A stretch of DNA of 64,000 nt from Alphaproteobacteria bacterium (GCA_965212075.1 OZ243043.1:260933-324932); one strand, 5' to 3'; positions 3,513 to 48,867 are shown, counted from the first letter of the stretch. The notes: generated from the sequence alone by a model not told the origin. Translations and numbers: made by a program.

Positions 3513-3561
3513 TTATTTTCCTGCTCGGTTTCGCTGAACAGGAAGAGGTAATCATTGCAGG

Positions 3562-23220: not shown

Positions 23221-24333
23221 TTATACGTTTAGTGCATTCTTGATTCTTTTGGTTATGATGTTTCTACCTTGCTCGCTGCTGAATTGACCAGCGGCTCCTT
23301 CATATCCTGCTCGCCAAAAATCAATGCCCTCAACTATTTCCCCTTCACTATTTTCTGCGCCTAATTTCTCAAGAGCCGGTTTGAGGATGTTTGCATATTC
23401 TTGTGGATCAGCAGGATCTTTTCCATCCATAACAATATTGATGAGAACAGATGGGATTAAAGCATGCAAAACATATACGCCAACAGTTTTCTGAATGGCG
23501 TAATTTTTTGGATTGTCTGTAAATGCCTCCTCAAATATGATTCTAATGCCTTTCCAGAGCGCATCAAGAATTTCCACTCTATCCTCGGTTTTGAATCTAG
23601 GTTGAATAAAACTTGATCCTTCACTTAGTGATCCTCGCAGAGAATTAACAATGGCGGCTGAGCCAATAATAGCTCCTTTAGTTTTTGTGTTCGGGAAACG
23701 GATAAGCCCTTTCCATATCTCTGTTTTATCTAGTTTTTCTGCGATGCTTTGAGCTTCCAACATCCAATCCAGCTTTTCTCTGGTTAGATATTCTTCGAGA
23801 TTCGATTCTGTTTGTGCCCTCTTTTTGAGTAGGGCGTAAGTGAGGTCAGTTTTGACGGATTTTGCTGTTGAATTAACGATGTGAAAGTGCTTCATTTCAT
23901 CTTCTTCATTAGCGCCAAGGAGACAGACGAACGGAAGCTGGTGATTCATCCACGTGTTATCATCGTGCTCTTCCTTAAGTTGCTTGAGGGCTTTTACACG
24001 ATGTTGCCCATCAATGATGAAAAATTTATCATTTTTGTTTTTTGGCAATGGTAGATGAAATCCACCTTTGTCTTTGAGTAAATCTTTCTCTGTGATGTTT
24101 CTTCTGTTAATAAGAATTGCTGTTGGCAGATCAGCTCGGCCTTGATGTAGGCTTTCAGCTAGTTGTGAAACACGCCTTTTATTGGCTTCGCGTTGATAGC
24201 CTTCTTTGGTTTCTTGGTCCCACTCGGGGATTTCAAAGTTTCTGAGGATGTGAATCACACTCATTGATCCGACAACGGTCGGTATCCTGCCTTCGATGAG
24301 GGGGCCTTCAACGACTTTAATTGAGTTTTCCAT
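23221..24333 (-). CDS. DGQHR-domain protein (DndB/DpdB-like, ParB/Srx nuclease superfamily), standalone
   Basis: Exact DGQHR motif (FFIIDGQHRVKALKQL) and a downstream HIVNSTAKSVKTDLTYALL block like DndB. About 370 aa. The gene is about 42% GC against about 57% for neighbours. Confidence 0.7.
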   Translation of the reverse strand: MENSIKVVEGPLIEGRIPTVVGSMSVIHILRNFEIPEWDQETKEGYQREANKRRVSQLAESLHQGRADLPTAILINRRNITEKDLLKDKGGFHLPLPKNKNDKFFIIDGQHRVKALKQLKEEHDDNTWMNHQLPFVCLLGANEEDEMKHFHIVNSTAKSVKTDLTYALLKKRAQTESNLEEYLTREKLDWMLEAQSIAEKLDKTEIWKGLIRFPNTKTKGAIIGSAAIVNSLRGSLSEGSSFIQPRFKTEDRVEILDALWKGIRIIFEEAFTDNPKNYAIQKTVGVYVLHALIPSVLINIVMDGKDPADPQEYANILKPALEKLGAENSEGEIVEGIDFWRAGYEGAAGQFSSEQGRNIITKRIKNALNV

Positions 24334-24532
24334 GGATATTATTTCCTAAATTGTTTGATGTTCTCTTGGAGTTAGATTGATGTTAGATTAGATCATATTT
24401 TAAGGATCTGTCAACAGAATAATGGAAAAAATATCTAATTTTACATATCTTGCATTGCTCGCTAATACAACCTATAATTGCATGTGTCATACTCATTCAA
24501 AGTGGTATAAACTATAAGAAGAAAGGGGGGCT

Positions 24533-25255
24533 ATGAAACAGAAAATCCAGTTGCTAGAAGCGTTTGATCGGCTCGGCGGCATCGCGGCGTTGCGCGACCT
24601 ATATCAGGAAACCGATATATCTCAATGGGAAACGAAGACGCCCTATGCGTCCATCCGGCGGCTCGTCCAGCAGGAGGAGGAGTTCTTTCGTCTGCGTCCG
24701 GGCCTCTACTGCCTCGCCAAGCGCGAGAAGCAATTCGCGCGCTTCAAGACCGGCACGAAGATAACCAAAGAGCATAATGATTTCCACAGCTATTATCAGG
24801 CGCGGCTTCTTGAGATAGGTCGGCTGCGTCATTTCCGCACCTATGCGCCTCCGCAGGACAGGCGAAAAAAGGTGTTTTCGGGCGGGCTGGTCGGCGATTT
24901 TTGCGATGAGGAAGAACTGCCCCCATTCAGCTATAAGAAGTTTCTGCAGAAGGCCAAGACGGTGGATGCGATTTGGTTTAATGATCGCAATATGCCGGCC
25001 AGCTTTTATGAGGTTGAGTTCACGACGAATTTCATCAACTCCTTGATGAAGTTCACCGAGCTGCAGGATTTCCATGCGGAGTTCATCATCGTCTCCGATG
25101 TTTCGCGCCGCCGCAGCTTTGATGACAAAATGGCCAGCGCGACCTTCCAGCCAATGAAGAAGCGGGTCAAGTTTAAGAGTTTTGATTTAATTGATAAGGA
25201 ATATAATGGCTATATGGAAATTTCATCGCCGAAAGATTTACAGGAGGGAAAGTGA
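24533..25255 (+). CDS. hypothetical protein: N-terminal Mrr_N-like winged helix plus possible restriction-endonuclease-like C-terminal region
   Basis: The N-terminus (KIQLLEAFDRLGGIAALRDLYQETDIS...FFRLRPGLYCLAK) fits a wHTH. The C-terminus (VDAIWFND...FYEVEFTT...K) is loosely PD-(D/E)xK-like. It overlaps the crotonase start in ATGA fashion. GC is host-like. Confidence 0.4.
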   Translation: MKQKIQLLEAFDRLGGIAALRDLYQETDISQWETKTPYASIRRLVQQEEEFFRLRPGLYCLAKREKQFARFKTGTKITKEHNDFHSYYQARLLEIGRLRHFRTYAPPQDRRKKVFSGGLVGDFCDEEELPPFSYKKFLQKAKTVDAIWFNDRNMPASFYEVEFTTNFINSLMKFTELQDFHAEFIIVSDVSRRRSFDDKMASATFQPMKKRVKFKSFDLIDKEYNGYMEISSPKDLQEGK

Positions 25256-28697: not shown

Positions 28698-28875
28698 TTC
28701 GCTGACGGGAGGCCTCCTTTTTCGTGATTATGCCCGCGATTATGGCCGCATAACACGCTGCCCGCAAGGCTGAAGGGAGATGAGGGGGTAAGAAAAATTT
28801 AACCCTAGGGCTATAATGATAGAAGGCATTTTAAGGTGCATTTTAGGACGAGTCCGCATTAAGTTTCGGAACAAA

Positions 28876-29586
28876 AATATGAGCAAACAAGATCACAGTT
28901 TGGGCGCGGCCCTTTTGACCCTTGTCTTTTTTTTGGGCGGTTGCGGGACGACGGATGTGCAGTCTCTGCCCGATGATCTGTTGCAGAGCTTGGCCGCGCC
29001 CGATTCTTATGTAGCGACGCAAGATGGCGTGGCCACAAATAATGCACAGCCCGATTCTAGTCAAGTCAAAGGCAAAAATGGCGCAGCAGCCAAAGGCGGT
29101 CCGTTTGCGCGTCTTCGCCGTGCGCTTGAGCGCGGTGATTTTGATCCCAGTAAAATCAAAGCGCCTGAATATAACGTGCCGGTCTATAAGAGTGGAATCA
29201 AAAAGAAGCAGCAGCTTGGCGCGCTGATGGATTCGGCTTATGATGCTTATGAAAAAGTGACCGGAGATAAATGGTATCCGCGCCGCGCGCGCATTGGCAC
29301 AGGCAGGCCTTCGGGTGATCCTTTGCTCAATCCGAACTGGTGGCAGATTTATGCCGGCCAGACTCTGCAGCGAACATTGGCGACATGGGGCGCACGCGCG
29401 GGATGGCGCGTCGTGTGGAAGTCGGATTATGAATATCCGATTGAGGCCAACGCTGTTTTTATCGGAGACTTTCCCAAAGTGGTGCAGCGCGTTTTGGAGG
29501 TTTTTGAAAAAGAGCCGTCTCCGGTTCATGCGGTTTTTTATAAGAATCGCGTTGTTGTTATAGATAATCATGAAGGTAATGGATGA
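28876..29586 (+). CDS. lipoprotein with TcpQ-like C-terminal domain (PilL-like, type IVb pilus-associated)
   Basis: Start moved to MSKQDHSLGAALLTLVFFLGGCG (lipobox LGGC). The C-terminus TLQRTLATWGARAGWRVVWKSDYEYPIEANAVFIGDF matches the TcpQ/PilL family pattern as I remember it. Confidence 0.55.
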   Translation, partial: NMSKQDHSLGAALLTLVFFLGGCGTTDVQSLPDDLLQSLAAPDSYVATQDGVATNNAQPDSSQVKGKNGAAAKGGPFARLRRALERGDFDPSKIKAPEYNVPVYKSGIKKKQQLGALMDSAYDAYEKVTGDKWYPRRARIGTGRPSGDPLLNPNWWQIYAGQTLQRTLATWGARAGWRVVWKSDYEYPIEANAVFIGDFPKVVQRVLEVFEKEPSPVHAVFYKNRVVVIDNHEGNG

Positions 29587-31094
29587 TGCGTCGGTCTGCT
29601 TTTTTACTGGCTTTTTTACTGGCTCTGCCTCTGCTTGCAGGCTGCGCTGCGTTTTTTGAAGATGACGTCGTTTTTGATGATGCGGCGCAGCAGGCTGCAA
29701 ATGCAGAAAAAGATATTCAAGAATTCTATCAAGCGCTTCAGCAAAGCATAGACAAAGCGCCGCAGGCCAAGACAGCGCGCAAGAAGAAAAAGCGCGCGCG
29801 CACTTTGACGCGCTATGTGGATGAGGTTTGGCTTGGTGACAGGCCAAAATTTTTCATGCGCGGCCAGCAAAACCTGCCGGATAAGATCAAGCGCCAGCGC
29901 GGCTTGGTTTTTGTCAGCGCGGTAGATTTGGATATTCGTCTGATTGCCAGCCGGATTTCTGAAATGACAGGCATTCCGGTTCAAGTGAGGGGGTCGCATA
30001 TCAGGAATATCAAACTGATAAAGCGCGCGCGGTTGAATTATCGCGGCTCGCTGATCGGCCTTTTGAATGTCGTCGCGAATTCGTTTGAGGCGTCGTGGTC
30101 TTATGACGTAAAGAGCCGCAGCCTGATGTTCACGCGGCTGATGACGCGCGCATTTAATTTTTATGCGCCGCCTGATGAAACTGCATTCGCAACGCCCGTC
30201 GTCAAGACGGGCGAAGCCAAGCCGCGGTTTTTGAAGGCTGAGGCTTGGCGCAGAATTAAGCGCATTTTGACTGATGTGATGCCATCCGGCTCGCGCGCCA
30301 ACATATCTCCTGAAGCGGGCAAGATCACTGTCACGACCACACCGCCCGCAATGGAGCGTGTCGCGCAGCTTATTCGTGTTCACAATCAATATTTCACCCG
30401 TGAAGTTCACTTAAATGTTCAAGTGATTTCTTTTGATCTCAAAGATGATCTTGGCGCTGCGAACAGACGCCGTTTGAATCTGCCCACTTTGTTGAAGGCT
30501 GCGGGGCTGGATAGCCAAAAAATGCCGACCGACAAGAGCGAAGACAAAAAAAAGCTGTCGCAGATTGAGCTGATGAATGTTGATATTGGGCTGATCATTG
30601 CCGCTTTGCGCAAGATCGGCAAAGTATCGGTTTTGACGATCACCGATACGCAAACGAGAGACGGCAAGGTCACGCCGATCTCCATGACCTCGCAGCAGGC
30701 CTACCTGCCGCGGCCTGAGGAGGTGTCGACCAATGAAACCAATGCGCCGACAACCATCACGACGGGGTTTTCAATGCGTGTGCGCCCGCGCATTTTGCCG
30801 CGCGCGCGCGTGCAGCTGGATATGTCTATGTCGCTGCGCGTGCTTGACCAGATTAAGAGTTTGGGTGCAGACAATAATCGCGTGCAGATTCCTGAAATAT
30901 CAACAAATTCGTGGGCGCAAGAGACGATTATTCCCAATAGAGCGACTTTGCTCGTTGCGGGCTTTGAGCATGGCGGGCAAAAGGTGGGCGCGGCAAGAAA
31001 CCAAAACGCATTGCGCGCGCTGATGATCGTTTTGATCACGCCGACGATTATTGAACAGACCAACGCTGAAGAGGTGAGCGGTGCGGCGGGATAA
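29583..31094 (+). CDS. secretin-family outer-membrane lipoprotein (R64 PilN-like)
   Basis: Lipobox LLAGC after a signal peptide. The C-terminal secretin domain reads VSVLTITDTQTRDGKVTPISMTSQQAYLP...ATLLVAGFEH. 4-nt overlap with the upstream gene. Confidence 0.6.
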   Translation: MMRRSAFLLAFLLALPLLAGCAAFFEDDVVFDDAAQQAANAEKDIQEFYQALQQSIDKAPQAKTARKKKKRARTLTRYVDEVWLGDRPKFFMRGQQNLPDKIKRQRGLVFVSAVDLDIRLIASRISEMTGIPVQVRGSHIRNIKLIKRARLNYRGSLIGLLNVVANSFEASWSYDVKSRSLMFTRLMTRAFNFYAPPDETAFATPVVKTGEAKPRFLKAEAWRRIKRILTDVMPSGSRANISPEAGKITVTTTPPAMERVAQLIRVHNQYFTREVHLNVQVISFDLKDDLGAANRRRLNLPTLLKAAGLDSQKMPTDKSEDKKKLSQIELMNVDIGLIIAALRKIGKVSVLTITDTQTRDGKVTPISMTSQQAYLPRPEEVSTNETNAPTTITTGFSMRVRPRILPRARVQLDMSMSLRVLDQIKSLGADNNRVQIPEISTNSWAQETIIPNRATLLVAGFEHGGQKVGAARNQNALRALMIVLITPTIIEQTNAEEVSGAAG

Positions 31095-31581
31095 TCATAT
31101 CATCATGGCTCTTGCGGTGATGGGGCTGGCGGCTTCTACCGCACAAGCTACTGCACAGGCGCGTCCGGCGCCTAGCCAGATAGAGGAGCTGCTGCAGCAG
31201 CAGATCAATCAGGATCGTTTTCAAAAGCAGCAAGAGCGGCAAAAGCAGCTTCAAAGGGGGGTGCCTTTGCGCAGATCTTCATCTCAAGAGACACCACCGC
31301 GCACACCGCGCGCGCGCGCGGCTAAAGAGCAGCCTTATAGTGTGCTTATCATTGCAGGCAAGCGCAAGGCATTGCAGGCCGATTTAATTGACGAAAATCA
31401 AGAAGTGATCCGCGTCAAAGTGGGAGATCGCTTGACCACATCTTCATCGCAAGTTTTCTTTGTCAGAGCAATTACGGATAAAAGCGTGCAATTGGTGAAA
31501 GATGGCAGAGTCTTTTTTGCGCCGATGGCAACAGAAAAGAACATCAAGCCGCGCGCGCGTTCGCGCTCCTCAAACAGATGA
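31081..31581 (+). CDS. PilP-like periplasmic protein (secretin-associated beta-domain)
   Basis: Signal peptide (MALAVMGLAASTAQATAQA) and a C-terminal beta-rich block (YSVLIIAGKRKALQADL...VKVGDRL...VQLVKDG) resembling PilP/GspC. Confidence 0.45.
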   Translation: MRRDNHIIMALAVMGLAASTAQATAQARPAPSQIEELLQQQINQDRFQKQQERQKQLQRGVPLRRSSSQETPPRTPRARAAKEQPYSVLIIAGKRKALQADLIDENQEVIRVKVGDRLTTSSSQVFFVRAITDKSVQLVKDGRVFFAPMATEKNIKPRARSRSSNR

Positions 31582-32078
31582 GACGGCGGAAATTTCCTGA
31601 TACTTTTTTTGTGTTATCTATAGCGGCGGCGCTGATAGCGGGTCTGCTTGCATGGCGGCAGGGTTTTGATGCGGATAAAACCAGCCTATTGACGATGAGC
31701 ATAGAAGGGACTTTGGCGCAAATCCGCACGGATTTTGCTGCCGCGCGGGATTATAGCTTTTTGAGCACCGTCTATGATAGCCGCCGCAAAAATCCTTGGG
31801 GGAATTTTACTGTTAGAGCAAGCGCTTATAATGGCGGTGCGGGCGCTTCTCATGTTCAGATTCGCCTCACGCAGATTCCCGACAAAGTGTGCGAGAATTT
31901 ATTAAAAACTTTGGGTGCAGATCGTTTTTTTATTCATGTGATTGAAGATGCAGATGACATCGTTAATTGGAGCGCGGCGATCAGCGTTTCGGCGCGCAAT
32001 TGCCAGAGCTTTGCCAATCAGGCAAAAAACGCTGTCCAATTGATATGGATGAAATCTAAAGTTCACGGATCAAAATGA
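31578..32078 (+). CDS. small N-terminally anchored protein with a C-terminal Cys pair (possible pilin/pseudopilin-like)
   Basis: MRRRKFPD followed by a 20-residue hydrophobic segment. Two Cys about 39 residues apart near the C-terminus (CENLL ... ARNCQSF). No canonical G/FTLIE prepilin site. Confidence 0.3.
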   Translation: MRRRKFPDTFFVLSIAAALIAGLLAWRQGFDADKTSLLTMSIEGTLAQIRTDFAAARDYSFLSTVYDSRRKNPWGNFTVRASAYNGGAGASHVQIRLTQIPDKVCENLLKTLGADRFFIHVIEDADDIVNWSAAISVSARNCQSFANQAKNAVQLIWMKSKVHGSK

Positions 32079-32091
32079 CTGAGGGGAGTGA

Positions 32092-33069
32092 GTGATTATG
32101 AGTCTTTCCAACATTCGGATGAGAGATATTTATTTTACAGCAGATGGACGCGTGCTGCTTTCAATTGACGGTGATTTGTTTTCGCTTGAGCGTATTGTCG
32201 CGCCGGAAAATGCAGATTTTCTTTCGTCCATTTTAAAGGTGCAGACTAAGGATTTAACATTTGCGGCGCGGGCGATCATCACCGACAGCCAAGAGATTTA
32301 TGATTTGGCGCGCAAGAAAAATGAGGCGGCGGGCGAAATCCATCACGATGAAACTGTTTACCATTTTAGCCGCCTATTGCCGCACGAGGACTCGGCTTTG
32401 TTTCATTTGCGCCGCCTTGAGAGCGAGGTGCCTAATTTGGAGACTTTGGGTCTGTCGCGGAATCTGATCTGGCATATTGAGCAGACGTGCCAAAAAGCAG
32501 GCTTGGTGGTGGCGGTAGGTCTTGAGAATGCGCGGCGTTCGGCGCGCTTATCTTCTTTGCTGTATTCATTATTGCATGCACGAGGCAAATTGGCGTGGAC
32601 TTTGGAAAGCGCGCCTGCCTATCGGCTCGCCGGGCTTTATCATCACGATCACGATGATGGCTATTGCGTTCAAGCGCATGTTGCCCAGCCATTATGGGGC
32701 GAGACCATTCGCGCCGCGAGCGCCGCCGATGCGGATTATATTTTAATTGATGAGATCAAAGAGGCCGAATGTGCCGCGCAAGCTCTGACGGCGGCGAGTT
32801 CGGGGCATCTTGTTTTATCAGGGTTTTACGCTGAAACGATTCCCGAAGCTTTGTCGCGGCTTGCCGATTATGCGGCGTCGGTTTTGAGCGAGACTTTGGC
32901 GCGCAAATTGATTGCGCAGTCTTTTCTTTTGGCGTTTGATGATGAGGGCGCACTTTTTGCTGATCTTGAGGTGAAAAACAAAATCGCGGCGGGCAAATGG
33001 ATTATGCTGACGAGTGATATAGAAAGCCAGATGGAGCGCCTGCGGCATGGCCAGCCACCTTTTGCCTGA
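32092..33069 (+). CDS. GspE/PilB-family secretion ATPase homologue with degenerate Walker A (predicted catalytically inactive)
   Basis: Asp-box-like TLESAP and the Walker B/His-box region (ADYILIDEIKEAECAAQALTAASSGHLVLSGF) are present. The position where GPTGSGKST should be reads GLENARRS. About 325 aa, so it lacks the N-terminal domains. Confidence 0.55.
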   Translation: MIMSLSNIRMRDIYFTADGRVLLSIDGDLFSLERIVAPENADFLSSILKVQTKDLTFAARAIITDSQEIYDLARKKNEAAGEIHHDETVYHFSRLLPHEDSALFHLRRLESEVPNLETLGLSRNLIWHIEQTCQKAGLVVAVGLENARRSARLSSLLYSLLHARGKLAWTLESAPAYRLAGLYHHDHDDGYCVQAHVAQPLWGETIRAASAADADYILIDEIKEAECAAQALTAASSGHLVLSGFYAETIPEALSRLADYAASVLSETLARKLIAQSFLLAFDDEGALFADLEVKNKIAAGKWIMLTSDIESQMERLRHGQPPFA

Positions 33070-33083
33070 GGAAATAATGAAAG

Positions 33084-33503
33084 ATGGAAATGAAAGATAT
33101 GACATTAGAGCACGTCTTGGAAGATTTTGCTTTGTTTGATGCGTGGGAGGATAAATATCGCTATCTGATAGAGCTGGGCAAAGCGCTGCCGCCTTTATCA
33201 AAAAGCGAACAGATCGCTGCGAATAAAGTTTCGGGCTGTGTGAGTCAAGTTTGGTTGGTTTCGCAGATTGGCGCAGACGGGCAGCTCATCTTGCGCGGCA
33301 CAAGTGATGCGTATATTGTGAGCGGTCTCATCGCTTTGCTGCTGAAAATTTATGCCAGCAAAAGGCCGGAGGAGATTTTAACCACTGACGCCGAAGAGAT
33401 ATTTCAGCGTCTGGGATTTGCCGATCATCTGACGCCGCAGCGCTCAAGCGGCTTTTACGCGATGGTGCGCCGGATCAAAGCTGACGCACAGGCAGAAATC
33501 TAG
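33084..33503 (+). CDS. sufE: cysteine desulfuration protein SufE
   Basis: KYRYLIELGK...VSGCVSQVWL SufE active-site Cys motif. Confidence 0.85.
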   Translation: MEMKDMTLEHVLEDFALFDAWEDKYRYLIELGKALPPLSKSEQIAANKVSGCVSQVWLVSQIGADGQLILRGTSDAYIVSGLIALLLKIYASKRPEEILTTDAEEIFQRLGFADHLTPQRSSGFYAMVRRIKADAQAEI

Positions 33504-34258
33504 CGAATGATGTGATAATGGCGCGCAAGCTGTGTGAGCGCGATGCCGAGCACGATCTTGCCTGAACGTTTCGGCCAGCCCAATGCATTTTCGGCCTGTG
33601 TGAGGCCGCGCATGTGGCAGCATACTTTCATTGTAATTTCGGCAAGCTCCGGGCCTAAGGCTTTCAGCGCGCGCCCGAGGCGCATCCGTGCTGCCAGCGC
33701 GCGCTCATTCATCAGCAACCCGTCATGCGGCTGCCGTCCTGCCTGTTTATTAGCGGGCGGTGCTGTGAGGTCAATGGTCATGCGCGGGCGCATCGTGCTT
33801 TGCAAAAAATCATTTTGCAGCCGCGACGCCGCCTGTAGCTGCTCTGCGCTGATCAGACATTTGCCATCCGGCCCGCGCCGTCGGCTGAGCCAGAGCAAGG
33901 GATTTTCCACAATGTTGATCTCGCAGGACTCTTTTACAGGCCTGACCCTCATCTGATGCTGGCCGCGAAAAATATCCTTATCTTTGAGGCTGGCGCGTCT
34001 GAACCACATCGCGCCGGTTGGGCTCGCGGTTAATTTTTTGCCGGTCGCGGTCAAAAAGTCATGGGCGCGCATCGCGGAGATGAAATCCGCGCTGCATGTC
34101 ATCACAGGCTTGGCATTGGATCTGGCTGTGTGGAGTCCATAGGCGCCATCTTTTTGCGGCAGCAGATAAGCACGCGGCGCGAGCAGACGGCGCAGGATTT
34201 GCCGTGCTTGGCGTTCAAAAGCCTTGCGGCCAATTTGATCACCGGGAGCTGCGCGCAT
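33500..34258 (-). CDS. C-terminal sigma-region-4-like HTH protein (DUF6456-like), candidate GafZ-like half of a split GafA
   Basis: C-terminal HTH (GLTQAENALGWPKRSGKIVLGIALTQLARHY). Start taken at MRAAPGDQ to avoid an 89-nt overlap with the upstream gene; the longer start at 34369 is not excluded. Confidence 0.4.
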   Translation of the reverse strand: MRAAPGDQIGRKAFERQARQILRRLLAPRAYLLPQKDGAYGLHTARSNAKPVMTCSADFISAMRAHDFLTATGKKLTASPTGAMWFRRASLKDKDIFRGQHQMRVRPVKESCEINIVENPLLWLSRRRGPDGKCLISAEQLQAASRLQNDFLQSTMRPRMTIDLTAPPANKQAGRQPHDGLLMNERALAARMRLGRALKALGPELAEITMKVCCHMRGLTQAENALGWPKRSGKIVLGIALTQLARHYHIIR

Positions 34259-34280
34259 TATCAGCACAATGCTCTCTTCG

Positions 34281-34622
34281 CTAGTTGAGGCGCTTTGCAA
34301 TTTGTGCGAGGCCTTCTTCAAGTCGGCAGAGCTGCATATCAAAGCGAGGATCATCGCGTCTTTCCTCAATGATGCGGCAGGCGTGGGAGGCTGTGGTGCG
34401 ATCGCGTCCGAAACAGGCGCCGGTTCGTGTCAGCGAGACGCCCAGCGCGACATGGCTCAGATACATGGCCGTTTGCCGCGCAAAGGCGATCGGCGCTTTG
34501 CGTCTTGTCGGCGCGCGCATTTCGGCGAGTGCGACGTTAAAGGCTTGCGCAACGGCGGTTTGGGCCAAATTCACCCGCGCTTGTTCAGCGCGGCGGCTTA
34601 TTTGTGTGCGAACATCTTCCAT
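34281..34622 (-). CDS. DnaA domain-IV-like HTH protein, candidate GafY-like half of a split GafA
   Basis: AMYLSHVALGVSLTRTGACFGRDRTTASHACRIIEERRDD matches the DnaA C-terminal DNA-binding helix-turn-helix signature. Confidence 0.5.
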   Translation of the reverse strand: MEDVRTQISRRAEQARVNLAQTAVAQAFNVALAEMRAPTRRKAPIAFARQTAMYLSHVALGVSLTRTGACFGRDRTTASHACRIIEERRDDPRFDMQLCRLEEGLAQIAKRLN

Positions 34623-34725: not shown

Positions 34726-34854
34726 ACTTATTAAGTGCAATATACATAAGCTGCTTATGGACGGGGATATCAAAATCGCTTTTTTGTCAAAATATCGCGG
34801 CGCGAAACATCGCCGCGCGAATTGACACCCCGTCTAGAGGGGGTAAAAGCAGAA

Positions 34855-36114
34855 ATGAAAATAATTATTTTAGGCGCAGGGTTAGCGGGCATTTGTTCAA
34901 GCTGGACGCTCGCGCGCGATGGCCATGAGGTGGTCGTCATTGATCGCCATCCGGCGGCGGCGCGCGGCACGAGCTTTGCCAATGGCGGCCATATCGCGGC
35001 GAGCGAAGCTCTGCCTTGGTCGAGCAAGGTGATTTTGCGCCGCCTGCTTTTGAGCTTTGTCCGGCGTCAGGGCGCGATGCGGCTGCATTTGCGCGCTGAT
35101 CCGGCGCAGTGGTGGTGGCTGGCGCGCATGGTTGCCAATGCGTCCGCCGGAGCTTGGCGCTCCAACACACATCGTTTGTTATCGCTTGCCGCTTTGAGTC
35201 AGGCCTGCTTCGCGCAATGGCTGGACGAGATCAAAGACGAAGATTCTCACATCAACGATAATGGTGTTTTGCATATATTTTCGGGCCGCGGCGCGATGCA
35301 GCGTGCGAAAAAGCGCGCGGCACTCATGGAGGCCAACGGGATTGATGTGCAGGTTTTGGACGGACATCTCTGTATGCGCACCGAACCTGCGCTGACGAAG
35401 GCGGTGCAATATCGTCGGGTTGAGGCGGGGCTGTTTTTTGCCTCCGATAAGACAGGAGACGCGCGCGCTTTTACTGAGACATTGAGCACACATGCCGCCA
35501 AGAAGGGTGTGAAATTTTTGTTCAATCATCAATTGACGGGTGTTGTGATGGAGGGTCGCCGGATCAAATCCGTGTTGACGGATCGCGGTGAGGTGAAGGG
35601 TGATATTTTTATTTTGGCGCTGGGCACGGACAGCGCATCTTTTGCGAAACATTTTGGGCTTGATCTGCCGATCTATCCGGTGCGCGGCTATTCGGTGACG
35701 ATGGCGACCAATGGCGCGCACGCGCCCAAATTAGGATTGGTGGATGAATCGCGCCGCGTGGTTGTCAGCCGTCTGGGGGCGCAATTGCGTCTTGCGGGTC
35801 TTGCGGATATTGGCGCGGCAGGGCATGAGATTCCGAGTCACCGCGCGGATATGCTGATGCGCGCTTGGTCGGAATTGCTGCCTGAGAGCGCGGATCGCGC
35901 TTCGGCCAAATTTTGGATTGGCGAGCGTCCGATGACTCCCGACAGCCTGCCTCTGCTTGGCCGCGCGCAGATGACGGACAATCTTTATTTGAATACGGGT
36001 CATGGCGCGCTGGGCTGGACGTTATGCCATGCGAGCGCGCAACTCACTGCAGATTTGATCGCGCGCCGCGCGCCGCAGCTTGATCCGACGCCGTTCTCGC
36101 TCTCAAGATTTTAA
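34855..36114 (+). CDS. dadA: D-amino acid dehydrogenase small subunit
   Basis: Start moved to MKIIILGAGLAGICSSW (FAD Rossmann fold). Length and C-terminus typical of DadA. Confidence 0.8.
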   Translation: MKIIILGAGLAGICSSWTLARDGHEVVVIDRHPAAARGTSFANGGHIAASEALPWSSKVILRRLLLSFVRRQGAMRLHLRADPAQWWWLARMVANASAGAWRSNTHRLLSLAALSQACFAQWLDEIKDEDSHINDNGVLHIFSGRGAMQRAKKRAALMEANGIDVQVLDGHLCMRTEPALTKAVQYRRVEAGLFFASDKTGDARAFTETLSTHAAKKGVKFLFNHQLTGVVMEGRRIKSVLTDRGEVKGDIFILALGTDSASFAKHFGLDLPIYPVRGYSVTMATNGAHAPKLGLVDESRRVVVSRLGAQLRLAGLADIGAAGHEIPSHRADMLMRAWSELLPESADRASAKFWIGERPMTPDSLPLLGRAQMTDNLYLNTGHGALGWTLCHASAQLTADLIARRAPQLDPTPFSLSRF

Positions 36115-38736: not shown

Positions 38737-39042
38737 GTGTTGTCAAACTTCAGCGATCAGGCGCATTTATACGACCTTTTGGCGCGCATTCATGCCCTGA
38801 TGGAAAGATATTTTGACGCGCTTGAAAACAATCTCGCACATAAGGATTATCGCTTCGAGCAGCGCGAGCGCGACGCCCGTGTGTTTAGCACACTCGCGCG
38901 CACTTTGGAAAAATTAACTCACGTTGAACAGCTTATCACAGAACCGCCGCGCGCCGCAGACAGCGACGCCGAAACGCGAAAACGTCTTGAGCAGAGACTG
39001 GCTCGGCTCATTGACATCCCAACAGAGAGAGAAGTTTCTTAA
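38737..39042 (+). CDS. GTA g1-like small helical protein (putative small terminase)
   Basis: 101-aa ORF directly upstream of, and overlapping, the large-terminase start region. Confidence 0.4.
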   Translation: MLSNFSDQAHLYDLLARIHALMERYFDALENNLAHKDYRFEQRERDARVFSTLARTLEKLTHVEQLITEPPRAADSDAETRKRLEQRLARLIDIPTEREVS

Positions 39043-40318
39043 CAGCCTCAATCATGAAGAAGCACAATGGATCATGGCTTACTGGCCGCTCTGGGCGCGC
39101 GCAGACCAGCTCCCGCCTGAGCGGCGGCGGCACACGCACTGGACGAGCTGGCTCATCCTCGGCGGACGCGGCGCAGGCAAAACCCGCGCCGGCGCCGAAT
39201 GGATCCGCGCCGCGGCCACAAAAAATTTCGCGGGTCAAGCCTCATCCGGACCATTGCGTATCGCACTCGTCGGCGAAACATATCTGGCGGCGCGCGCCGT
39301 TATGGTGGAAGGCGAAAGCGGATTGTTGAACATTGGCAGTGAAAAGACGCGGCCTGCGTTCCAGCCATCGCGGCGGCAGCTGCGCTGGCCAAGCGGCGCG
39401 ATCGCTGAATTGTTTTCCGCTGAAGACCCCGAAGCTCTGCGCGGGCCGCAATTTCATTTTGCGTGGTGCGATGAGCTCTGCAAATGGCGCTATGCCGATG
39501 AAACATGGAATATGCTGCAATTTGCCTTGAGGCTTGGTGAACGGCCTCAGCAGGTCATCACGACGACGCCGCGCACGATGCCTTTGCTCAAAAAACTGAT
39601 GGCCGCGCCCGACACCGTCATCACCCATGCGACGACCTATGCCAATCGCGGCAACCTCGCGCCGTCATTTTTTGACTCGATCATTCGCAACTATGAAGGC
39701 ACGCGGCTTGGCCGACAGGAACTTGATGCGGAGCTGATGGAAGATGATCCCGATGCTCTCTGGACACGAGAAATGATCGAGCGCAGCCGCTGTGCGGCGG
39801 CGCCGTCAGATTTGGCGCGCATCATTGTCGCTGTTGATCCGCCGGTGACCGGCACGAAAACCTCAGACGAATGCGGGATCATCGTCGCCGCTTTGGATGA
39901 GGCGCAAAAAGAGATTTATGTACTCGCCGATCATTCGGCAGGCGATCTGTCGCCGACCCAATGGGCCGAGCGCGCGGTGCGCGCTTTGCGCATGCACAAA
40001 GCCGACCGCATTGTTGCTGAGGTGAATCAAGGCGGTGATATGGTTGAGACGATCATCCGGCAGATTGCGCCCTCGGTGCCATTTCGCGCGGTGCGCGCGA
40101 GCCGCAGCAAGCGCCTGCGCGCCGAGCCCGTCGCCGCGCTTTACGAACAAAGGCGGGTTTATCATGTTGGCGCTTTGCCGCAGCTTGAAGATCAAATGTG
40201 CTCTTTTACCGGCAGCGGCAATGCGCCCAGCCCCGATCGCTTGGATGCGCTCGTCTGGGCGATCACCGATTTAATGTTCAGCGGCGCGAGCGGCCTCGCG
40301 CGCATGAGACGGCTTTAA
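38924..40318 (+). CDS. GTA large terminase
   Basis: FLNSLNHEEAQW...WARADQLPP N-terminus and Walker A (GGRGAGKTRAGAEW). Start (TTG at 38924) is uncertain. Confidence 0.8.
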   Translation: MNSLSQNRRAPQTATPKRENVLSRDWLGSLTSQQREKFLNSLNHEEAQWIMAYWPLWARADQLPPERRRHTHWTSWLILGGRGAGKTRAGAEWIRAAATKNFAGQASSGPLRIALVGETYLAARAVMVEGESGLLNIGSEKTRPAFQPSRRQLRWPSGAIAELFSAEDPEALRGPQFHFAWCDELCKWRYADETWNMLQFALRLGERPQQVITTTPRTMPLLKKLMAAPDTVITHATTYANRGNLAPSFFDSIIRNYEGTRLGRQELDAELMEDDPDALWTREMIERSRCAAAPSDLARIIVAVDPPVTGTKTSDECGIIVAALDEAQKEIYVLADHSAGDLSPTQWAERAVRALRMHKADRIVAEVNQGGDMVETIIRQIAPSVPFRAVRASRSKRLRAEPVAALYEQRRVYHVGALPQLEDQMCSFTGSGNAPSPDRLDALVWAITDLMFSGASGLARMRRL

Positions 40319-40336
40319 AAATTTCGCCAAAACAGC

Positions 40337-41566
40337 TTGAAGGATAAACCTATGAAACTTTGGCCATTCAACACCGCGCCCGAGAAAAAAACCGGACGCG
40401 GCGAGCGCCTTGTCGCGCTGCATATGCAGGGACGGCCTGTCTGGACGCCGCGCAACATCGAGTCTTTGGCGCGCGAGGGCTTCATCCGCAATGCGATCGT
40501 CTATCGCTGCGTGCGCATGATCGCCGAAGCGGCGGCCCATATCCCTTGGCTGCTCTACGACAATAAAGTCGAGATGCACGAACATCCGATGTTGGAGCTG
40601 CTCCACCATCCCAATAGCGGCCAGAGCGGCATTGATCTGATGGAAAGCTGGTATGGCCATTTGCAGCTCTCGGGCAATGGCTATTTGGAGATCGTCGATA
40701 TTGGCGCCGCGCGGCGCGAGCTTCATGTGCTGCGTCCGGATCGGATGCGGGTCGTGCCTGACAAAAGAGGCTGGCCGTCCGGCTATGAATATCGCGTCGG
40801 TGGGCGGCGAATGATCTATCCGGGGCGCGATGCCAAAAACCTCGCGCCGATTTTGCATATGCGTCTTTTCCACCCGATCAATGATTATTACGGCATGAGC
40901 CCGATTGAAGCCGCCGCCTATGGCATCGACATTCATAATGCGGCCGGCAGCTGGAGCAAAGCCCTGTTGGATAATTCGGCGCGGCCTTCGGGCGCGCTTG
41001 TTTATAAAGGGCCTGACGGCGCGCCGAACCTGACGCAGGATCAGTTTGCGCGCCTGAAGCGCGAATTGGAGGAAAATTACGAGGGCGCAAACAATGCTGG
41101 CCGGCCTTTATTATTGGAAGGCGGACTTGAATGGGCGTCTATGGGCCATTCGCCGCGCGATATGGATTTCATTGACACGAAGCATGTGGCCGCGCGCGAG
41201 ATTGCACTCGCCTTTGGCGTGCCGCCAATGTTGCTGGGCATCCCCGGAGATAATACCTTCGCCAATTACGCTGAGGCCAATCGGACTTTCTGGCGGCAGA
41301 CGATTTTGCCTCTGGTCACGCGCACCGCCGCAACTTTGACGCAATGGCTCACCCCGCGTTTTGGCCGCTCTTTGCGCCTGTCGTTTGACAGCGACCGGAT
41401 CGATGCGCTTGCCAGTGAACGTGAGTCTTTGTGGAAGCGCATTGCGGATTCGGATTTCTTGACGATCAACGAAAAGCGCGCTGCGATGGGCTATGAGCCG
41501 ATCACGGGCGGAGACGCGCTCGGCAGCATGAGCGCTTCGGGCGCGCGCAATCCATCACAGATATAA
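40337..41566 (+). CDS. GTA portal protein (HK97 family)
   Basis: Length and conserved blocks (GNGYLEIV...MSPIEAAAYGIDIHNAAG). Confidence 0.8.
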   Translation: MKDKPMKLWPFNTAPEKKTGRGERLVALHMQGRPVWTPRNIESLAREGFIRNAIVYRCVRMIAEAAAHIPWLLYDNKVEMHEHPMLELLHHPNSGQSGIDLMESWYGHLQLSGNGYLEIVDIGAARRELHVLRPDRMRVVPDKRGWPSGYEYRVGGRRMIYPGRDAKNLAPILHMRLFHPINDYYGMSPIEAAAYGIDIHNAAGSWSKALLDNSARPSGALVYKGPDGAPNLTQDQFARLKRELEENYEGANNAGRPLLLEGGLEWASMGHSPRDMDFIDTKHVAAREIALAFGVPPMLLGIPGDNTFANYAEANRTFWRQTILPLVTRTAATLTQWLTPRFGRSLRLSFDSDRIDALASERESLWKRIADSDFLTINEKRAAMGYEPITGGDALGSMSASGARNPSQI

Positions 41567-41593
41567 AAAACAAATATAGCCAATAGATATAAA

Positions 41594-41881
41594 ATGAGTT
41601 TAACCGAACAAAAATGGAATCTAGATCGCCGCGTGCCGCTGGTTTTTATCTTGGCGCTGATCGTGCAAAGCGGCGCAGCACTTCTCTGGGTCGGGCAGAT
41701 CACGCAGCGCATCAATCATATAGAACAGGCCACCGGCTTCGCCGCTGATATTGGCGAGCGCATCGTTCGCCTTGAGGCCAACACTTCTTTTATGCGCGCG
41801 ACCCTCCAGCGTGTGGAGCGCAAAATTGACCTGCTGCACGCACAAAAAAATGCCGCCAGACACCGCGGAGGCGGAGAATAA
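41594..41881 (+). CDS. GTA g3.5-like small membrane protein
   Basis: 95 aa, one TM, lying between portal and protease as in RcGTA. Confidence 0.5.
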   Translation: MSLTEQKWNLDRRVPLVFILALIVQSGAALLWVGQITQRINHIEQATGFAADIGERIVRLEANTSFMRATLQRVERKIDLLHAQKNAARHRGGGE

Positions 41882-42463
41882 ATGAATCTTGATTTTTCCC
41901 GCTCAGGCCGGTTTCGCGGCTATGCGAGCATTTTTAACAGCCCCGATCTGGCGCATGATGTGATTATGCCGGGCGCGTTTGCGCGCTCGCTGCACCGCCG
42001 CGGCACGAAGCGCGTGCGCATGCTCTACCAGCATGAGGCCGCGCAGCCGATCGGCATCTGGCACGAACTCAAAGAAGATGGGCAGGGCCTTTTGGTTGAA
42101 GGCTCTTTGCTGCTTGATGTTGAGCGCGCGCATGATGTCTGGAAGCTCATCGGTGCCGGCGCGATTGACGGCCTGTCCATCGGCTTTCGCACGATTCGCT
42201 CCGGCACGGCGCGGCAGCATGGTGTGCGCGTCGTCCATGAAATTGACCTTGTTGAAATTTCCATCGTCACATTCCCGATGCACCCGCAGGCGCGCGTGAG
42301 CCGCCTCGGAGCAATTACGCCGATTCCACAAAATTTACCTTCACAAAACTTAATGGCACAAAACTTAATGGCACAAAACTTAATGGCACAAAACTTAATG
42401 GCACAAAACTTAATGGCACAAAAATTACGCGATGCGGCGAAACATATTTCACCGCATTTTTAA
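41882..42463 (+). CDS. GTA prohead protease (HK97 family) with C-terminal (QNLMA)5 repeat tail
   Basis: HK97 protease blocks (FRGYASIFN...DLAHDVIMPGAF; AIDGLSIGF) and a 25-aa C-terminal repeat. Confidence 0.8.
   Translation: MNLDFSRSGRFRGYASIFNSPDLAHDVIMPGAFARSLHRRGTKRVRMLYQHEAAQPIGIWHELKEDGQGLLVEGSLLLDVERAHDVWKLIGAGAIDGLSIGFRTIRSGTARQHGVRVVHEIDLVEISIVTFPMHPQARVSRLGAITPIPQNLPSQNLMAQNLMAQNLMAQNLMAQNLMAQKLRDAAKHISPHF
42327..42431 (+). repeat. 15-bp tandem repeat CACAAAACTTAATGG x5 (plus degenerate flanks), coding (QNLMA)n
   Basis: Five perfect copies at 42342-42416. The repeat is AT-rich in a GC-rich gene and lies at the 3' end of the protease ORF, upstream of the capsid RBS. Confidence 0.9.
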
Positions 42464-42494
42464 CCCCCACCGGAAACTAACAAAGGAGACCCTT

Positions 42495-43787
42495 ATGAAT
42501 TCCGAAACCCCCAACCATGAAATCAAGGCGCTCGGCGCTGACGGCCATGATGCCCATGAAGTCCGCCACGCGCTCAACGAGCTGATGCGCGCATTTGAAG
42601 CCTTCAAAGAGGCCAATAATGATCGCCTCGCCCAGATTGATCGCCGCCTGAGCGCCGACGTCGTCACCGAAGATAAAATCCACCGTCTCAATGAGACGAT
42701 GGACACGCATCAAAAAATGCTCGACGATTTCGCGATCGCACAGCAGCGCCCGGCGCTGGACAGCTATGTCGGCTCCGCCGAGCGTGAGCACAAAGCCGCG
42801 TTTGACTCTTATCTGCGCAAAGGCATCACCAGCGGCCTCGACAGCTTTGAGAGCAAAGCGCTGTCGACAGCAACAGACTCGGCAGGCGGATATGTCGTGC
42901 CTGAAACGGTGATGCTCGCTGTCACCGATCGTCTCGCGAGCGCATCGCCTTTTCGCCGCCTCGCGACCGTCCAGCAAGTCTCGACGACATCGTTCAAGAA
43001 AGTGCTTACGGCCTCAGGCCCGGACGTCCGATGGGCAATGTCAGAAAGCAATGATGGCACGATCGGAAACCCAGATGGCAGTTTTGCTGAACGCGCCTTC
43101 AACTTCGGGCGGCTGGTCGCCACACCTGTCGCGACGCAAAGCCTGCTTGATGACAGCGCCATTGATCTCGAAAAATGGCTCGCCGACGAAATCTATATCG
43201 GCTTTGCTGAAAAAGAAGCCGAAGCTTTTGTCAAAGGCGATTCCAGCCCGCCTTCGCCGAAGGGCTTTTTGCAGGAGGCCATTGCTGCGCAGGGTGATTC
43301 TCTCACCAATAGCCAGATCGGCTATATTCCGACTGGCAAAAGCGCGGATTGGCCTCTAGATGGCGCCGACGGCGGCGGCAGAATGGCCAAATTGCTTGAA
43401 GTGGTCTATGCGCTCAAAGCGGCTTATCGCACGCAGGCGAGCTGGCTCATGAACAAGACGAGCATTGCCGTCGTGCGCAGCTGGACGGATGCCGAGGGCA
43501 ACGCGCTCTGGCAGCCGCCAACCCAGCTCGGCGCGTCTGCGACTTTGCTGGACTATCCGGTTGCTGAAGTTGAGGATATGCCCAACAAGAATACGTCCGG
43601 CCTTGCTTACCCGCTGGCCTTCGGCAATTGGCAGCGCGGCTATCTGATCGCTGATCGCATGGATATGCGCATCTTGCGCGATCCTTATTCCAGCAAGCCG
43701 AATGTGGTGTTCTATACGACGAAGACCCTCGGCGGCGGCGTGATGGAGCACAGCGCGATCAAACTGCTCAAATGTTCGGTTAACTAA
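42495..43787 (+). CDS. GTA major capsid protein (HK97 family)
   Basis: Start moved to MNSETPNHEIK, 7 nt after an AAGGAG RBS. Conserved capsid blocks throughout. Confidence 0.8.
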   Translation: MNSETPNHEIKALGADGHDAHEVRHALNELMRAFEAFKEANNDRLAQIDRRLSADVVTEDKIHRLNETMDTHQKMLDDFAIAQQRPALDSYVGSAEREHKAAFDSYLRKGITSGLDSFESKALSTATDSAGGYVVPETVMLAVTDRLASASPFRRLATVQQVSTTSFKKVLTASGPDVRWAMSESNDGTIGNPDGSFAERAFNFGRLVATPVATQSLLDDSAIDLEKWLADEIYIGFAEKEAEAFVKGDSSPPSPKGFLQEAIAAQGDSLTNSQIGYIPTGKSADWPLDGADGGGRMAKLLEVVYALKAAYRTQASWLMNKTSIAVVRSWTDAEGNALWQPPTQLGASATLLDYPVAEVEDMPNKNTSGLAYPLAFGNWQRGYLIADRMDMRILRDPYSSKPNVVFYTTKTLGGGVMEHSAIKLLKCSVN

Positions 43788-43866
43788 CCACAAGTGAACA
43801 AAATGCCCGTCCGTTTTACTGCGGGCGGGCATTTAACTTGAGCATTTAACGGGAAAAATTTTTACG

Positions 43867-44421
43867 ATGTTTCTTTCACTCAAAACCGGACCGGCCATTG
43901 AGCCGGTGAGCCTTGCTGAAGCCAAAGCGCATCTGCGCATGGATGGCACCGATGAAGACGGGCTGATCAATTCGCTGATCACCGCCGCGCGCCTGATGGT
44001 GGAGGCGCACACGGCGCGCGCACTGATCACACAGGCTTGGCTGCTTCATTTGGACAATACATATTTGGACAGCCCATCAGGATTTTATGAGTTGCCGCTT
44101 CAGCCGGCAAAGGAGATCACCGGCGTCAAAGTTTTCGCCAAAGATGGCGCCGAGACCCCGCTCAGCGCGGAGGATTACATCACCGAAATGCGTGGCGAAA
44201 CGATGAGGGTGAAGCTTCACCGCACCGCGCACCGCGCTGAAGTAGCCTTTGTCGTCGGCTATGGCGACGAGGCGTCAAATGTGCCGGCACCTTTGACGCA
44301 GGCGATTTTGCAGCTGACCGCTAATTGGTTTGAAAATCGCGGCAATGCGTCTTTGATGGGCAGCGCCATGCCTAAGGCGGTTTCGGTTTTGCTCGCTCCT
44401 TATCGCAGTGTGCACTTATGA
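43867..44421 (+). CDS. GTA head-tail connector (gp6-like)
   Basis: Position and size in the GTA order. Confidence 0.6.
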   Translation: MFLSLKTGPAIEPVSLAEAKAHLRMDGTDEDGLINSLITAARLMVEAHTARALITQAWLLHLDNTYLDSPSGFYELPLQPAKEITGVKVFAKDGAETPLSAEDYITEMRGETMRVKLHRTAHRAEVAFVVGYGDEASNVPAPLTQAILQLTANWFENRGNASLMGSAMPKAVSVLLAPYRSVHL

Positions 44422-44756
44422 TCGGTCGCTTGCGGCATCGCTTGACTTTGCAAAGACCGGTTCTCACCGCCGATGGCGCGGGCGGCCAAAACCGCAGCTG
44501 GGAGGAGGCCGCAAAAGTCTGGGCCGATCTGCGCGACATATCGGGCGCGCAAGCCGGATTTGCCGAAGGCCTCGCCGCGACGACGCGCACGCGCATCACC
44601 ATTCGCTGGCGCGCTGATCTGACCGCGGTGATGCGCTTTTCCGACGGCCAGCGAATATTCAATATCATCTCGGTGCTTGACCAGACGGGCGTGAAAAGAT
44701 TCCTCACCTGCATTTGTGAAGAAGATCTGCGCGAACGCGAGGCGGGGGCGCAATGA
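44418..44756 (+). CDS. GTA head-tail adaptor
   Basis: Position and size. 4-nt overlaps on both sides. Confidence 0.6.
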   Translation: MIGRLRHRLTLQRPVLTADGAGGQNRSWEEAAKVWADLRDISGAQAGFAEGLAATTRTRITIRWRADLTAVMRFSDGQRIFNIISVLDQTGVKRFLTCICEEDLREREAGAQ

Positions 44757-45184
44757 AATCTTTATCTTTGGTTTTGCAAAAGGCGCTGCACCAGAAATTG
44801 TCTGCTGCTTTGCGAGAGGGGAATTTGCGCGAGGGTAAAGCGGTGAAGGTCTATGACGGCGCGCCGCCGGAGGCCGCCTTCCCCTATGTGACGATCGGGG
44901 AAGGGCGCGTGCGGATTGAGGCGCTCGATCAGATCAGCCTCTATGATCATCTATGCGATGTGTTTGTTTTCTCACAGCATACAGGCATCAGCGAGACCAA
45001 AGAGATTCTTGAAACCATTTACGATGTGCTCGCAGGAGATGATCCCCTATCTATTGACGGCCATCATCTCACTTTGCTGACGATCACCGAAATGCGATTT
45101 CAATCCATGAGCGATGGAAAAACTTGGCGCGGACAATTAACGTTCCGCGCTCTCACTGAACCCGAAACAAAATCTGCGGCTTAA
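44753..45184 (+). CDS. GTA DUF3168 tail-completion protein
   Basis: Position and size. Confidence 0.55.
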   Translation: MKSLSLVLQKALHQKLSAALREGNLREGKAVKVYDGAPPEAAFPYVTIGEGRVRIEALDQISLYDHLCDVFVFSQHTGISETKEILETIYDVLAGDDPLSIDGHHLTLLTITEMRFQSMSDGKTWRGQLTFRALTEPETKSAA

Positions 45185-45222
45185 CCCAGCCAAAGCAACC
45201 AATTACCTTAAAGGAGAAAAAT

Positions 45223-46225: not shown

Positions 46226-46233
46226 GAGAAAAT

Positions 46234-46836: not shown

Positions 46837-46860
46837 AATTTTCATTGGTAGAAAAATCAA

Positions 46861-47517: not shown

Positions 47518-47525
47518 GAGTCTTT

Positions 47526-48862: not shown

Positions 48863-48867
48863 GACAT

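Follow-up and report, generated by a model that had tools for sequence, protein, structure and literature searches.

The 64,000-nucleotide stretch of DNA analysed here (Alphaproteobacteria bacterium, GCA_965212075.1, OZ243043.1:260933-324932; the whole stretch is called the window) carries, at 28816-33069, an operon of five genes, p1 to p5, that is a derivative of a type IVb-like pilus cluster. It arose in situ by clean deletions, which removed PilO, PilQ together with PilR, the second pilin, two distal genes and the prepilin peptidase. That the operon is a deletion remnant maintained under selection is very probable. The best explanation overall, to which a probability of about 0.6 is assigned, is that this derivative is a retained envelope module built on a secretin and independent of a pilus. 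A preliminary description of the window had offered a choice between a decayed relic and a repurposed secretin gate with a scaffold formed by a pseudo-ATPase. The evidence favours the second alternative, and purifying selection acts on each of the five genes.

The origin of the operon is documented by its relatives. A contig of 1.72 Mb (L002/L007) holds a complete pil cluster between the flanks that enclose the operon in the window, namely an enoyl-CoA hydratase (ECH) gene and an MFS transporter gene upstream, and sufE, DUF6456, DnaA_C-like, DUF934, sulfite reductase and DUF2849 genes followed by the terminase and portal genes of a gene transfer agent (GTA) downstream. In order, this cluster encodes a TcpQ lipoprotein (counterpart of p1), a secretin (p2), a protein of 432 amino acids (aa) in the PilO position, a 312-aa PilP whose C-terminal domain corresponds to p3, a 930-aa assembly-type T2SSE ATPase (PilQ), a T2SSF platform protein (PilR), a 193-aa prepilin (ERG|VTLVE; counterpart of p4), a 163-aa prepilin, a 335-aa PilT-like ATPase with intact Walker A (ATPase2; counterpart of p5), a 188-aa protein and a 252-aa prepilin-like protein; those listed without a counterpart have none in the window. 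In L008, a second complete lineage, an equivalent cluster precedes the same arrangement from sufE onwards, and in both L007 and L008 a Peptidase_A24 (prepilin peptidase) gene lies directly past the DnaA_C-like gene. Its position in the window, before DUF934, is occupied by a DAO-family FAD oxidoreductase gene, which likewise follows the DnaA_C-like gene, in the gene order of the window, in L001, L003, L004 and L009-L012; in L013 the downstream stretch is in reversed order and the DAO gene is further off. The assembly ATPases of the complete clusters are unusually long (930-933 aa; L007 4299-7091, L008 323-3124) and consist of three repeated N-terminal segments with Pro/Ala-rich linkers, followed by the T2SSE domain.

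A tblastn search of the window with every protein of both complete clusters revealed no trace of the missing genes, and Pfam scans of the upstream and far-downstream genes of the window detected no other type IV pilus components. The absence of platform and prepilin peptidase genes from the window, as given in the preliminary description, was thus confirmed with the L002/L008 proteins as queries. The shared flanks, the collinear mapping and the lack of relics of the missing genes together identify the operon as an in-situ deletion derivative. The resemblance in gene order to the R64 clusters also proved correct, the complete relatives having the order PilL-N-O-P-Q-R, pilins, ATPase2, minor pilins. 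The operon had not been recognised as a described alphaproteobacterial system; because complete pil clusters occupy the same locus in L002/L007 and L008, a finding that the preliminary description had named as refuting its reading, it is a deletion remnant and not an independent kind of system, nor an artefact. A faulty assembly was considered and rejected, as several samples yielded independent long contigs, circular ones among them, with the same architecture.

The reduced form is widespread. The four-gene core p1-p4 was found at the same locus in ten of ten reduced contigs (window, L001, L003, L004 and L009-L014) from at least seven distinct lineages. All five genes of the window recur in L001 (58% secretin identity); L003, L004, L009 and L010 (approximately 55% secretin identity) have four only, with 22 nt between the p4 stop and sufE. 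An exhaustive phmmer search of 1.84 billion representatives with p4 yielded four more divergent relatives, L011-L014 (28-41% identity over the matched stretches), on whose contigs the same four-gene operon lies between two MFS genes and sufE. Two-sided chromosomal synteny was observed in all 12 distinct related loci; among the reduced loci, flanking-gene identity goes down to approximately 40-55% in the fastest-evolving flanks. A scan of genome contigs with the single secretin gave no matches; with an alignment, genome contigs gave only L005 (the L001 contig) and L006 (the L002 species, 98% nucleotide identity), and metagenome contigs gave none. The fifth gene was found only in the window and L001. 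Rooted on L002/L007, the neighbour-joining tree built from six flanking proteins has the topology (L012, ((L011,(L013,L014)), ((window,L001),(L003,L004)))) and implies loss of p5 in three separate lineages; the tree of the operon proteins differs in topology and implies two losses. Independent loss of p5 has occurred at least twice.

Selection was estimated as the ratio of nonsynonymous to synonymous substitutions (dN/dS) by the Nei-Gojobori method on codon alignments. For the unsaturated pair L003-L004 (dS 0.25-0.42), dN/dS is 0.24 for p1, 0.27 for p2, 0.27 for p3 and 0.16 for p4, compared with 0.06-0.22 for the flanking genes. For p5, window against L001, the value is 0.195, which is approximate because dS is 1.2, and is similar to those of sufE and the DUF6456 gene in the same pair. 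In L013-L014 pN is well below pS for all four genes. The dN/dS check proposed in the preliminary description thus indicates purifying selection on all five genes. The open reading frames (ORFs) of the operon are intact in every lineage but one, L014, whose p4 orthologue (10001-10405) has 134 aa and lacks the second cysteine, either a real truncation or an error on a contig of 4x coverage. Together, the dN/dS values and the intact ORFs despite divergence contradict a relic undergoing neutral decay.

The fourth gene had been described as a small anchored protein with a cysteine pair and left without a family. The first part of this description holds, and the label is now replaced by that of a degenerate type IV pilin, so that the operon is not devoid of a pilin gene as had been claimed: p4 is a pilin derivative that has lost the G-1 cleavage site and Glu5. 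The match of p4 to the Pfam type IVb pilin family PilS (PF08805) is below threshold (E 8.4e-4). The position of p4 is collinear with the 193-aa prepilin of the complete cluster, which it matches by blastp with E 5e-6, and profile-profile comparison of the p4 family with the prepilins gave a probability of 85% (E 6.7e-6, 109 columns) and an alignment that pairs Asp8 of p4 with Glu5 of the pilins and the first cysteines with each other. The N-terminal hydrophobic helix, the globular domain and the cysteine pair (Cys105, Cys142) are retained. The protein starts MRRRKFPDT..., with no G-1 and with Asp at the Glu5 position (Tyr or Leu in other lineages); G-1 and Glu5 are absent in every reduced lineage, the divergent relatives included. 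Judging from these residues, p4 can presumably no longer be processed or polymerised. In several orthologues an AxA-like site comes after the hydrophobic helix; cleavage by signal peptidase I would make the membrane-anchored protein a soluble one of the periplasm. A search of PDB sequences with the p4 profile returned chance matches only. In the predicted secondary structure, strands come after a long N-terminal helix; this pattern agrees with a pilin and was not counted as evidence.

The family placements of the preliminary description were right: TcpQ, Secretin and, for p5, T2SSE are recognised above the Pfam cut-offs, and PilN (TIGR02520) and PilP below theirs. The TcpQ match of p1 (PF10671, residues 176-250) scores 77.5 bits against a threshold of 27 (E 8.1e-22), and p1 orthologues were found in every reduced and full locus. 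Lipoboxes are visible in p1 (FLGGC) and p2 (LLAGC, canonical). A central block of p1, FDPxxIxAPxY...YK...LLxELMxSAYDAYxxVxGxxWYPxR (29180-29380, residues ~100-165), matches no Pfam family; it is near-invariant across the reduced lineages (L001, L003, L004, L011-L014) and unalignable in the complete-cluster lineage. Since it is kept in the reduced lineages only, the block suggests a new constraint, possibly acquired after the reduction. The second protein narrowly passes the Pfam Secretin model (30.9 bits, cut-off 27.5) and shares 32% identity with the complete-cluster secretin. Among NCBIfam models it best matches that of the PilN type IVB secretins, TIGR02520 (8.5e-34, 117 bits, cut-off 287.65), a cut-off that the secretin of the complete lineage (230 bits) likewise does not reach; PilN is the closest family of p2, its equivalog membership not being certified by this score. 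Only ten relatives of the secretin were found among 5.8 billion proteins in a word-indexed search. The third protein has a Sec signal peptide, is shorter than the 312-aa ancestral PilP and scores 20.5 bits (E 7.6e-4) on PilP TIGR03021, below the cut-off of 34.65, as does the collinear PilP of the complete cluster (28.6 bits, E 2.3e-6), with which it aligns in the C-terminal domain and in the motif ME..L..QI..R.

The last gene, p5, encodes a protein that passes Pfam T2SSE (PF00437; 34.2 bits, cut-off 24.9) and has its best NCBIfam match in the PilT/PilU family (TIGR01420; 1e-13). It had been described as a GspE/PilB-family ATPase without a P-loop; the domain is indeed present with Walker A replaced, and the other catalytic motifs are altered as well. 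In an alignment with twelve relatives, Walker A, G(S/A/P)TGxGKTT in the intact family, reads GLENARRSA in p5; the Asp box YTIEDPPE reads WTLESAPA; Walker B RYILVGEIR reads DYILIDEIK, with the glycine changed; the arginine-rich segment ALRSRPRY is lost; and the His box SGHLVxSTIHA reads SGHLVLSGFYA, with the second histidine changed. These replacements predict a protein unable to act as an enzyme or to hydrolyse ATP. The label PilQ had to be withdrawn, because full-length orthology (31% identity, E 2e-54) is to the 335-aa ATPase2 of the complete cluster and not to the 930-aa assembly ATPase. Nor does the pseudo-ATPase belong to the conserved core, as it is missing from eight of the ten reduced loci. 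Its strong conservation between the window and L001 (68% identity) argues for a non-catalytic role in these two lineages, and its repeated loss elsewhere indicates that the core does not need it.

All five coupled genes of the preliminary description were found on the plus strand (Table 1), with the overlaps exactly as given: ATGA at 29583-29586 (p1/p2), 14 nt at 31081-31094 (p2/p3) and ATGA at 31578-31581 (p3/p4). For p1 the likely start is the ATG at 28879, where the orthologues begin and which the conserved upstream motif precedes, the alternative being the ATG at 28816. For p5 a strong Shine-Dalgarno sequence (GAGGGGAG) lies 9 nt before the likely start, the ATG at 32098, the alternative being the GTG at 32092. 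The spacing between p4 and p5 is 13-19 nt, and the p5 stop is separated from the sufE start by 14 nt. A consensus scan for promoters and terminators found no convincing terminator between p5 and sufE and fewer promoter-like sites than in shuffled sequence; sufE may be co-transcribed with the operon. The G+C content of the operon had been called host-like and is close to it, at 51.5% against 54.6% for the window, though slightly low and not identical.

Table 1. Location of the operon genes and of other features in the window
Feature	Position	Strand	Description
CcrM-like gene	2430-3512	-	N6_N4 methyltransferase with RAMA domain
AAATTAACCCT	3559-3569	-	motif just upstream of the CcrM-like gene
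DndB-like gene	23221-24333	-	in low-GC islet
240-aa gene	24533-25255	+	in low-GC islet
AATTTAACCCT	28796..28806	+	conserved upstream motif, CtrA half-site-like; may be the regulatory site of the operon
p1	28816-29586 (orthologue-matched start 28879)	+	PilL-like outer-membrane lipoprotein, C-terminal TcpQ domain
p2	29583-31094	+	PilN-like lipoprotein secretin, outer-membrane channel
p3	31081-31581	+	PilP-like periplasmic protein
p4	31578-32078	+	degenerate type IV pilin, anchored, Cys pair
p5	32092-33069 (likely start 32098)	+	PilT-like pseudo-ATPase, T2SSE family
DUF6456 gene	33500-34369	-	directly after sufE
DnaA_C-like gene	34281-34622	-	small gene following the DUF6456 gene
DAO gene	34822-36114	+	DAO-family FAD oxidoreductase
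RcGTA-like structural cluster	~38924-52794	+	syntenic with terminase and portal genes of relatives
RcGTA-like large terminase	38924-40318	+	
RcGTA-like portal	40337-41566	+	
RcGTA-like 1308-aa protein	48868-52794	+	
196-aa ORF	60125-60715		no Pfam match

The sole alignable block in the intergenic regions between the MFS gene and p1, across all reduced lineages, is AAAAATTAACC(A/C/T)T, which occurs as exact TTAACCAT, a published CtrA half-site (PMC3692519), in L011, L013 and L014. The motif upstream of the operon is also denoted AAAAATTAACCNT, and its pattern is matched eight times in the window against a shuffle mean of 2.6, above every shuffle. An extended form of the motif is common to the upstream regions of the operon and of the CcrM-like methylase gene. 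In Caulobacter, ccrM is a classical CtrA target. From this motif, the operon may be expressed under CtrA-type control.

At this locus PilO, the assembly ATPase and the platform were deleted, as were the minor pilins and the prepilin peptidase, while the operon kept the PilN-type lipoprotein secretin, its TcpQ-domain lipoprotein partner and the PilP-like periplasmic connector, along with a putative pilin-fold protein beyond processing and polymerisation and, only in the window and L001, a homologue of the PilT-like ATPase. In the proposed scheme the kept proteins would still assemble as a secretin-based complex of outer membrane and periplasm that needs no filament, the TcpQ-type lipoprotein stabilising or localising the secretin by analogy with TcpQ and TcpC, and the pseudo-ATPase would be a dispensable, non-catalytic accessory protein. 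A function of the retained proteins that is independent of a pilus is likely. The role that best suits such a complex would be a gated outer-membrane conduit or an envelope-spanning scaffold; a channel or conduit in particular is proposed tentatively. A more far-reaching version, rather doubtful, is an autonomous envelope device without motor or filament, made of the secretin, its TcpQ-type lipoprotein, PilP and a non-polymerising pilin-fold protein and exapted from a type IVb pilus in a clade of alphaproteobacteria with small genomes. It would perhaps be controlled by CtrA and tied to GafA and the GTA, for instance as a gated outer-membrane route for DNA or another macromolecule, with the dead PilT homologue as a regulator in some lineages.

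Several points weigh against a retained, pilus-independent module. Its assembly and localisation are predictions, and any transported substrate would be hypothetical. The operon proteins change at 2-3 times the rate of their neighbours, which means weaker constraint; between the window and L011 the secretin is 38% identical, as against 57-82% for the flanking proteins. At 117 bits on the PilN model, where the complete lineage reaches 230, the secretin has diverged strongly from that model. AlphaFold2 models are of low confidence both for p2 (pLDDT 44, alignment of 8 sequences) and for p4 (pLDDT 47, single sequence), so that neither fold is independently confirmed. The repeated loss of p5 implies that its retention in the window may be transient, and all relatives are uncultured metagenome-assembled genomes. 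Moreover, the searches covered 64 kb of a genome of 1.61 Mb, which leaves room for trans-acting parts of a pilus or type II secretion system (T2SS) elsewhere.

This last point is also an argument for a secretin module that serves a type IV pilus, Tad or T2SS machine whose other parts are encoded elsewhere in the genome. Type IVb pilus (T4bP) models accept multi-locus systems with a "loner" peptidase (PMC6668835), and the CtrA-like motif is of a kind typical of alphaproteobacterial pilus genes. This explanation is nevertheless unlikely. The pilin of the operon has neither cleavage site nor Glu5 in any reduced lineage, and the cognate PilO, PilQ, PilR, minor pilins and locus-linked A24 peptidase are all deleted. 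Tad and T2SS normally bring their own secretins, and ATPase searches of low sensitivity found no second T2SSE-family protein from the contig of the window.

The surroundings of the operon raise the question of a take-over of the secretin module for a task linked to GTAs, for example as a CtrA-co-regulated outer-membrane gate for the traffic of DNA or particles. DUF6456 is the annotation of GafA, a direct activator of gene transfer agents (PMC9638019). The DUF6456 and DnaA_C-like genes next to sufE look like a split GafA (GafZ/GafY-like), and in all relatives this pair adjoins the pil-derived operon. Whether full or reduced, the cluster has sufE and a split GafA-like activator beside it in every lineage; an RcGTA-like structural cluster follows a few kb away, and the CtrA-like motif lies upstream. 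CtrA controls GTA genes in other alphaproteobacteria. Against this, synteny alone is weak evidence, and the linkage is older than the reduction, so that it does not explain which genes were kept. Known GTA release is by lysis, and known uptake employs ComEC/ComF/ComM/DprA without a secretin. A GTA-linked function of this kind is accordingly judged improbable.

Quite improbable is a functionless relic of genome reduction whose genes still await deletion or disruption. In favour of it, the genomes are small (1.6-1.9 Mb), the loss was stepwise, from a complete cluster to five genes and then to four, and the operon genes evolve faster than their neighbours, with weakening matches to the family models. 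A relic is largely refuted, however, by dN/dS values of 0.16-0.27 at unsaturated divergence. In addition, intact ORFs of 130-540 codons persist in at least seven lineages with saturated synonymous sites, translational coupling and the upstream motif are conserved, and the central block of p1 is kept specifically in the reduced lineages.

A horizontally acquired thin-pilus fragment of a plasmid or an integrative and conjugative element (ICE) of R64 or PAPI-1 type, to which the order L-N-(O)-P-(Q-R)-S and a G+C content approximately 3 points under the window mean would correspond, is most improbable, as both flanks are syntenic across relatives, those with complete clusters included, no integrase, tRNA or transfer genes lie near the operon, and the operon phylogeny broadly follows that of the flanks. 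The chromosomal, non-ICE nature of the operon given in the preliminary description is upheld by the two-sided synteny, and a recent ICE insertion is refuted by it and by the lack of mobility genes beside the operon. At the gathering threshold no RNA family of Rfam matched the window, and no rRNA or tRNA marks an integration site. An ancient transfer into the ancestor of the clade may have taken place.

Two further regions of the window were recorded. The stretch from the ECH gene to the MFS gene includes a low-GC islet (42-45%, 23221-25255), in which the 240-aa gene sits where relatives carry NmeDI_C-like genes. In relatives this stretch varies, with a ZorA-like/OmpA pair, an ABC/DUF4435 protein, HNH-methylases, a type I restriction-modification system, Fic and TPS-domain proteins, and it resembles a hot spot where defence or variable genes gather. 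The G+C content falls to 44.8% at 60001-61000, where the 196-aa ORF lies between the gene of a GH46/peptidoglycan-binding protein and ccmF.

Secretins are usually pictured as a passive outer exit in a machine whose drive sits in the inner membrane. In this operon selection has maintained a secretin and its periplasmic partners well beyond the loss of motor, platform, peptidase and working pilins, and the retained set probably does a pilus-free job across a group of uncultured alphaproteobacteria. Searches of the literature for TcpQ with secretin and Alphaproteobacteria, or for "orphan secretin", found no description of a conserved secretin-PilL-PilP-pseudopilin module. If active, the module would show what a secretin subcomplex does alone, and would be a clean natural case of the exaptation of type IV filament parts. 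The series of complete, five-gene and four-gene genomes offers a comparative system for asking which interactions keep the outer subcomplex assembled. In 2019 a survey of type IV filaments reported no T4bP in Alphaproteobacteria (PMC6668835); with the complete relatives, R64-type type IVb clusters appear to reach alphaproteobacterial chromosomes as well. The retention under selection is unexpected and the evolutionary series is clean; the re-use of pilus parts without a pilus itself has a precedent, reported for flagellar motors (PMC10823254).

Among known systems, the T4bP model of MacSyFinder has pilD, pilB, pilA and pilC, together with pilQ, as mandatory genes and a quorum of 4 (PMC6668835). 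The secretin (pilQ class) is supplied by p2. An assembly ATPase (pilB class) with intact nucleotide-binding motifs, a platform protein (pilC/T2SSF) and a prepilin peptidase (pilD/Peptidase_A24) were not found within the window, and p4 lacks the class III signal peptide with G-1 and Glu5 that defines a major pilin. With the secretin alone the operon falls short of the quorum, and it is therefore not to be filed as a type IVb pilus system but as a reduced derivative of one.

The closest likeness is to the R64 and PAPI-1 clusters (pilL-M-N-O-P-Q-R-S-T-U-V), which have, in an order matching that of the operon, a TcpQ-domain PilL lipoprotein, a PilN-type lipoprotein secretin, PilP and a PilS-like pilin. 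In the complete relatives L007/L008 these are joined by PilO, the assembly ATPase and the platform as well as by minor pilins and the peptidase. Unlike the R64 and PAPI-1 clusters, the operon lies in the chromosome and has been passed on vertically within a clade of Alphaproteobacteria instead of being carried by a plasmid or ICE, and the copy in the window is without O, Q, R, U and V and has an unprocessable pilin. To our knowledge R64 is without the second PilT-like ATPase that the ancestral cluster carries. The toxin-coregulated pilus (TCP) of Vibrio cholerae pairs a lipoprotein secretin, TcpC, with TcpQ, as the operon pairs p2 with p1. The TCP secretin depends on TcpQ for its stability and its localisation, and the relationship of p1 to p2 is, by analogy, most likely the same. 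TCP is a complete machine with ATPase, platform, peptidase and pilins, whereas the operon in the window keeps the outer part only.

The PilT/PilU retraction ATPases are full-length homologues of p5 with the same domain layout, and the intact orthologues of p5 score best on the PilT/PilU models; p5 differs from them in its replaced catalytic motifs and in having no platform or pilus at the locus on which to act. A re-use of type IV pilus parts without a pilus is known from homologues of PilM/N/O, which are reported to form a cage around flagellar motors (PMC10823254). The cage consists of inner-membrane alignment proteins and has a known host machine, in contrast to the operon of the window, which encodes a secretin module.

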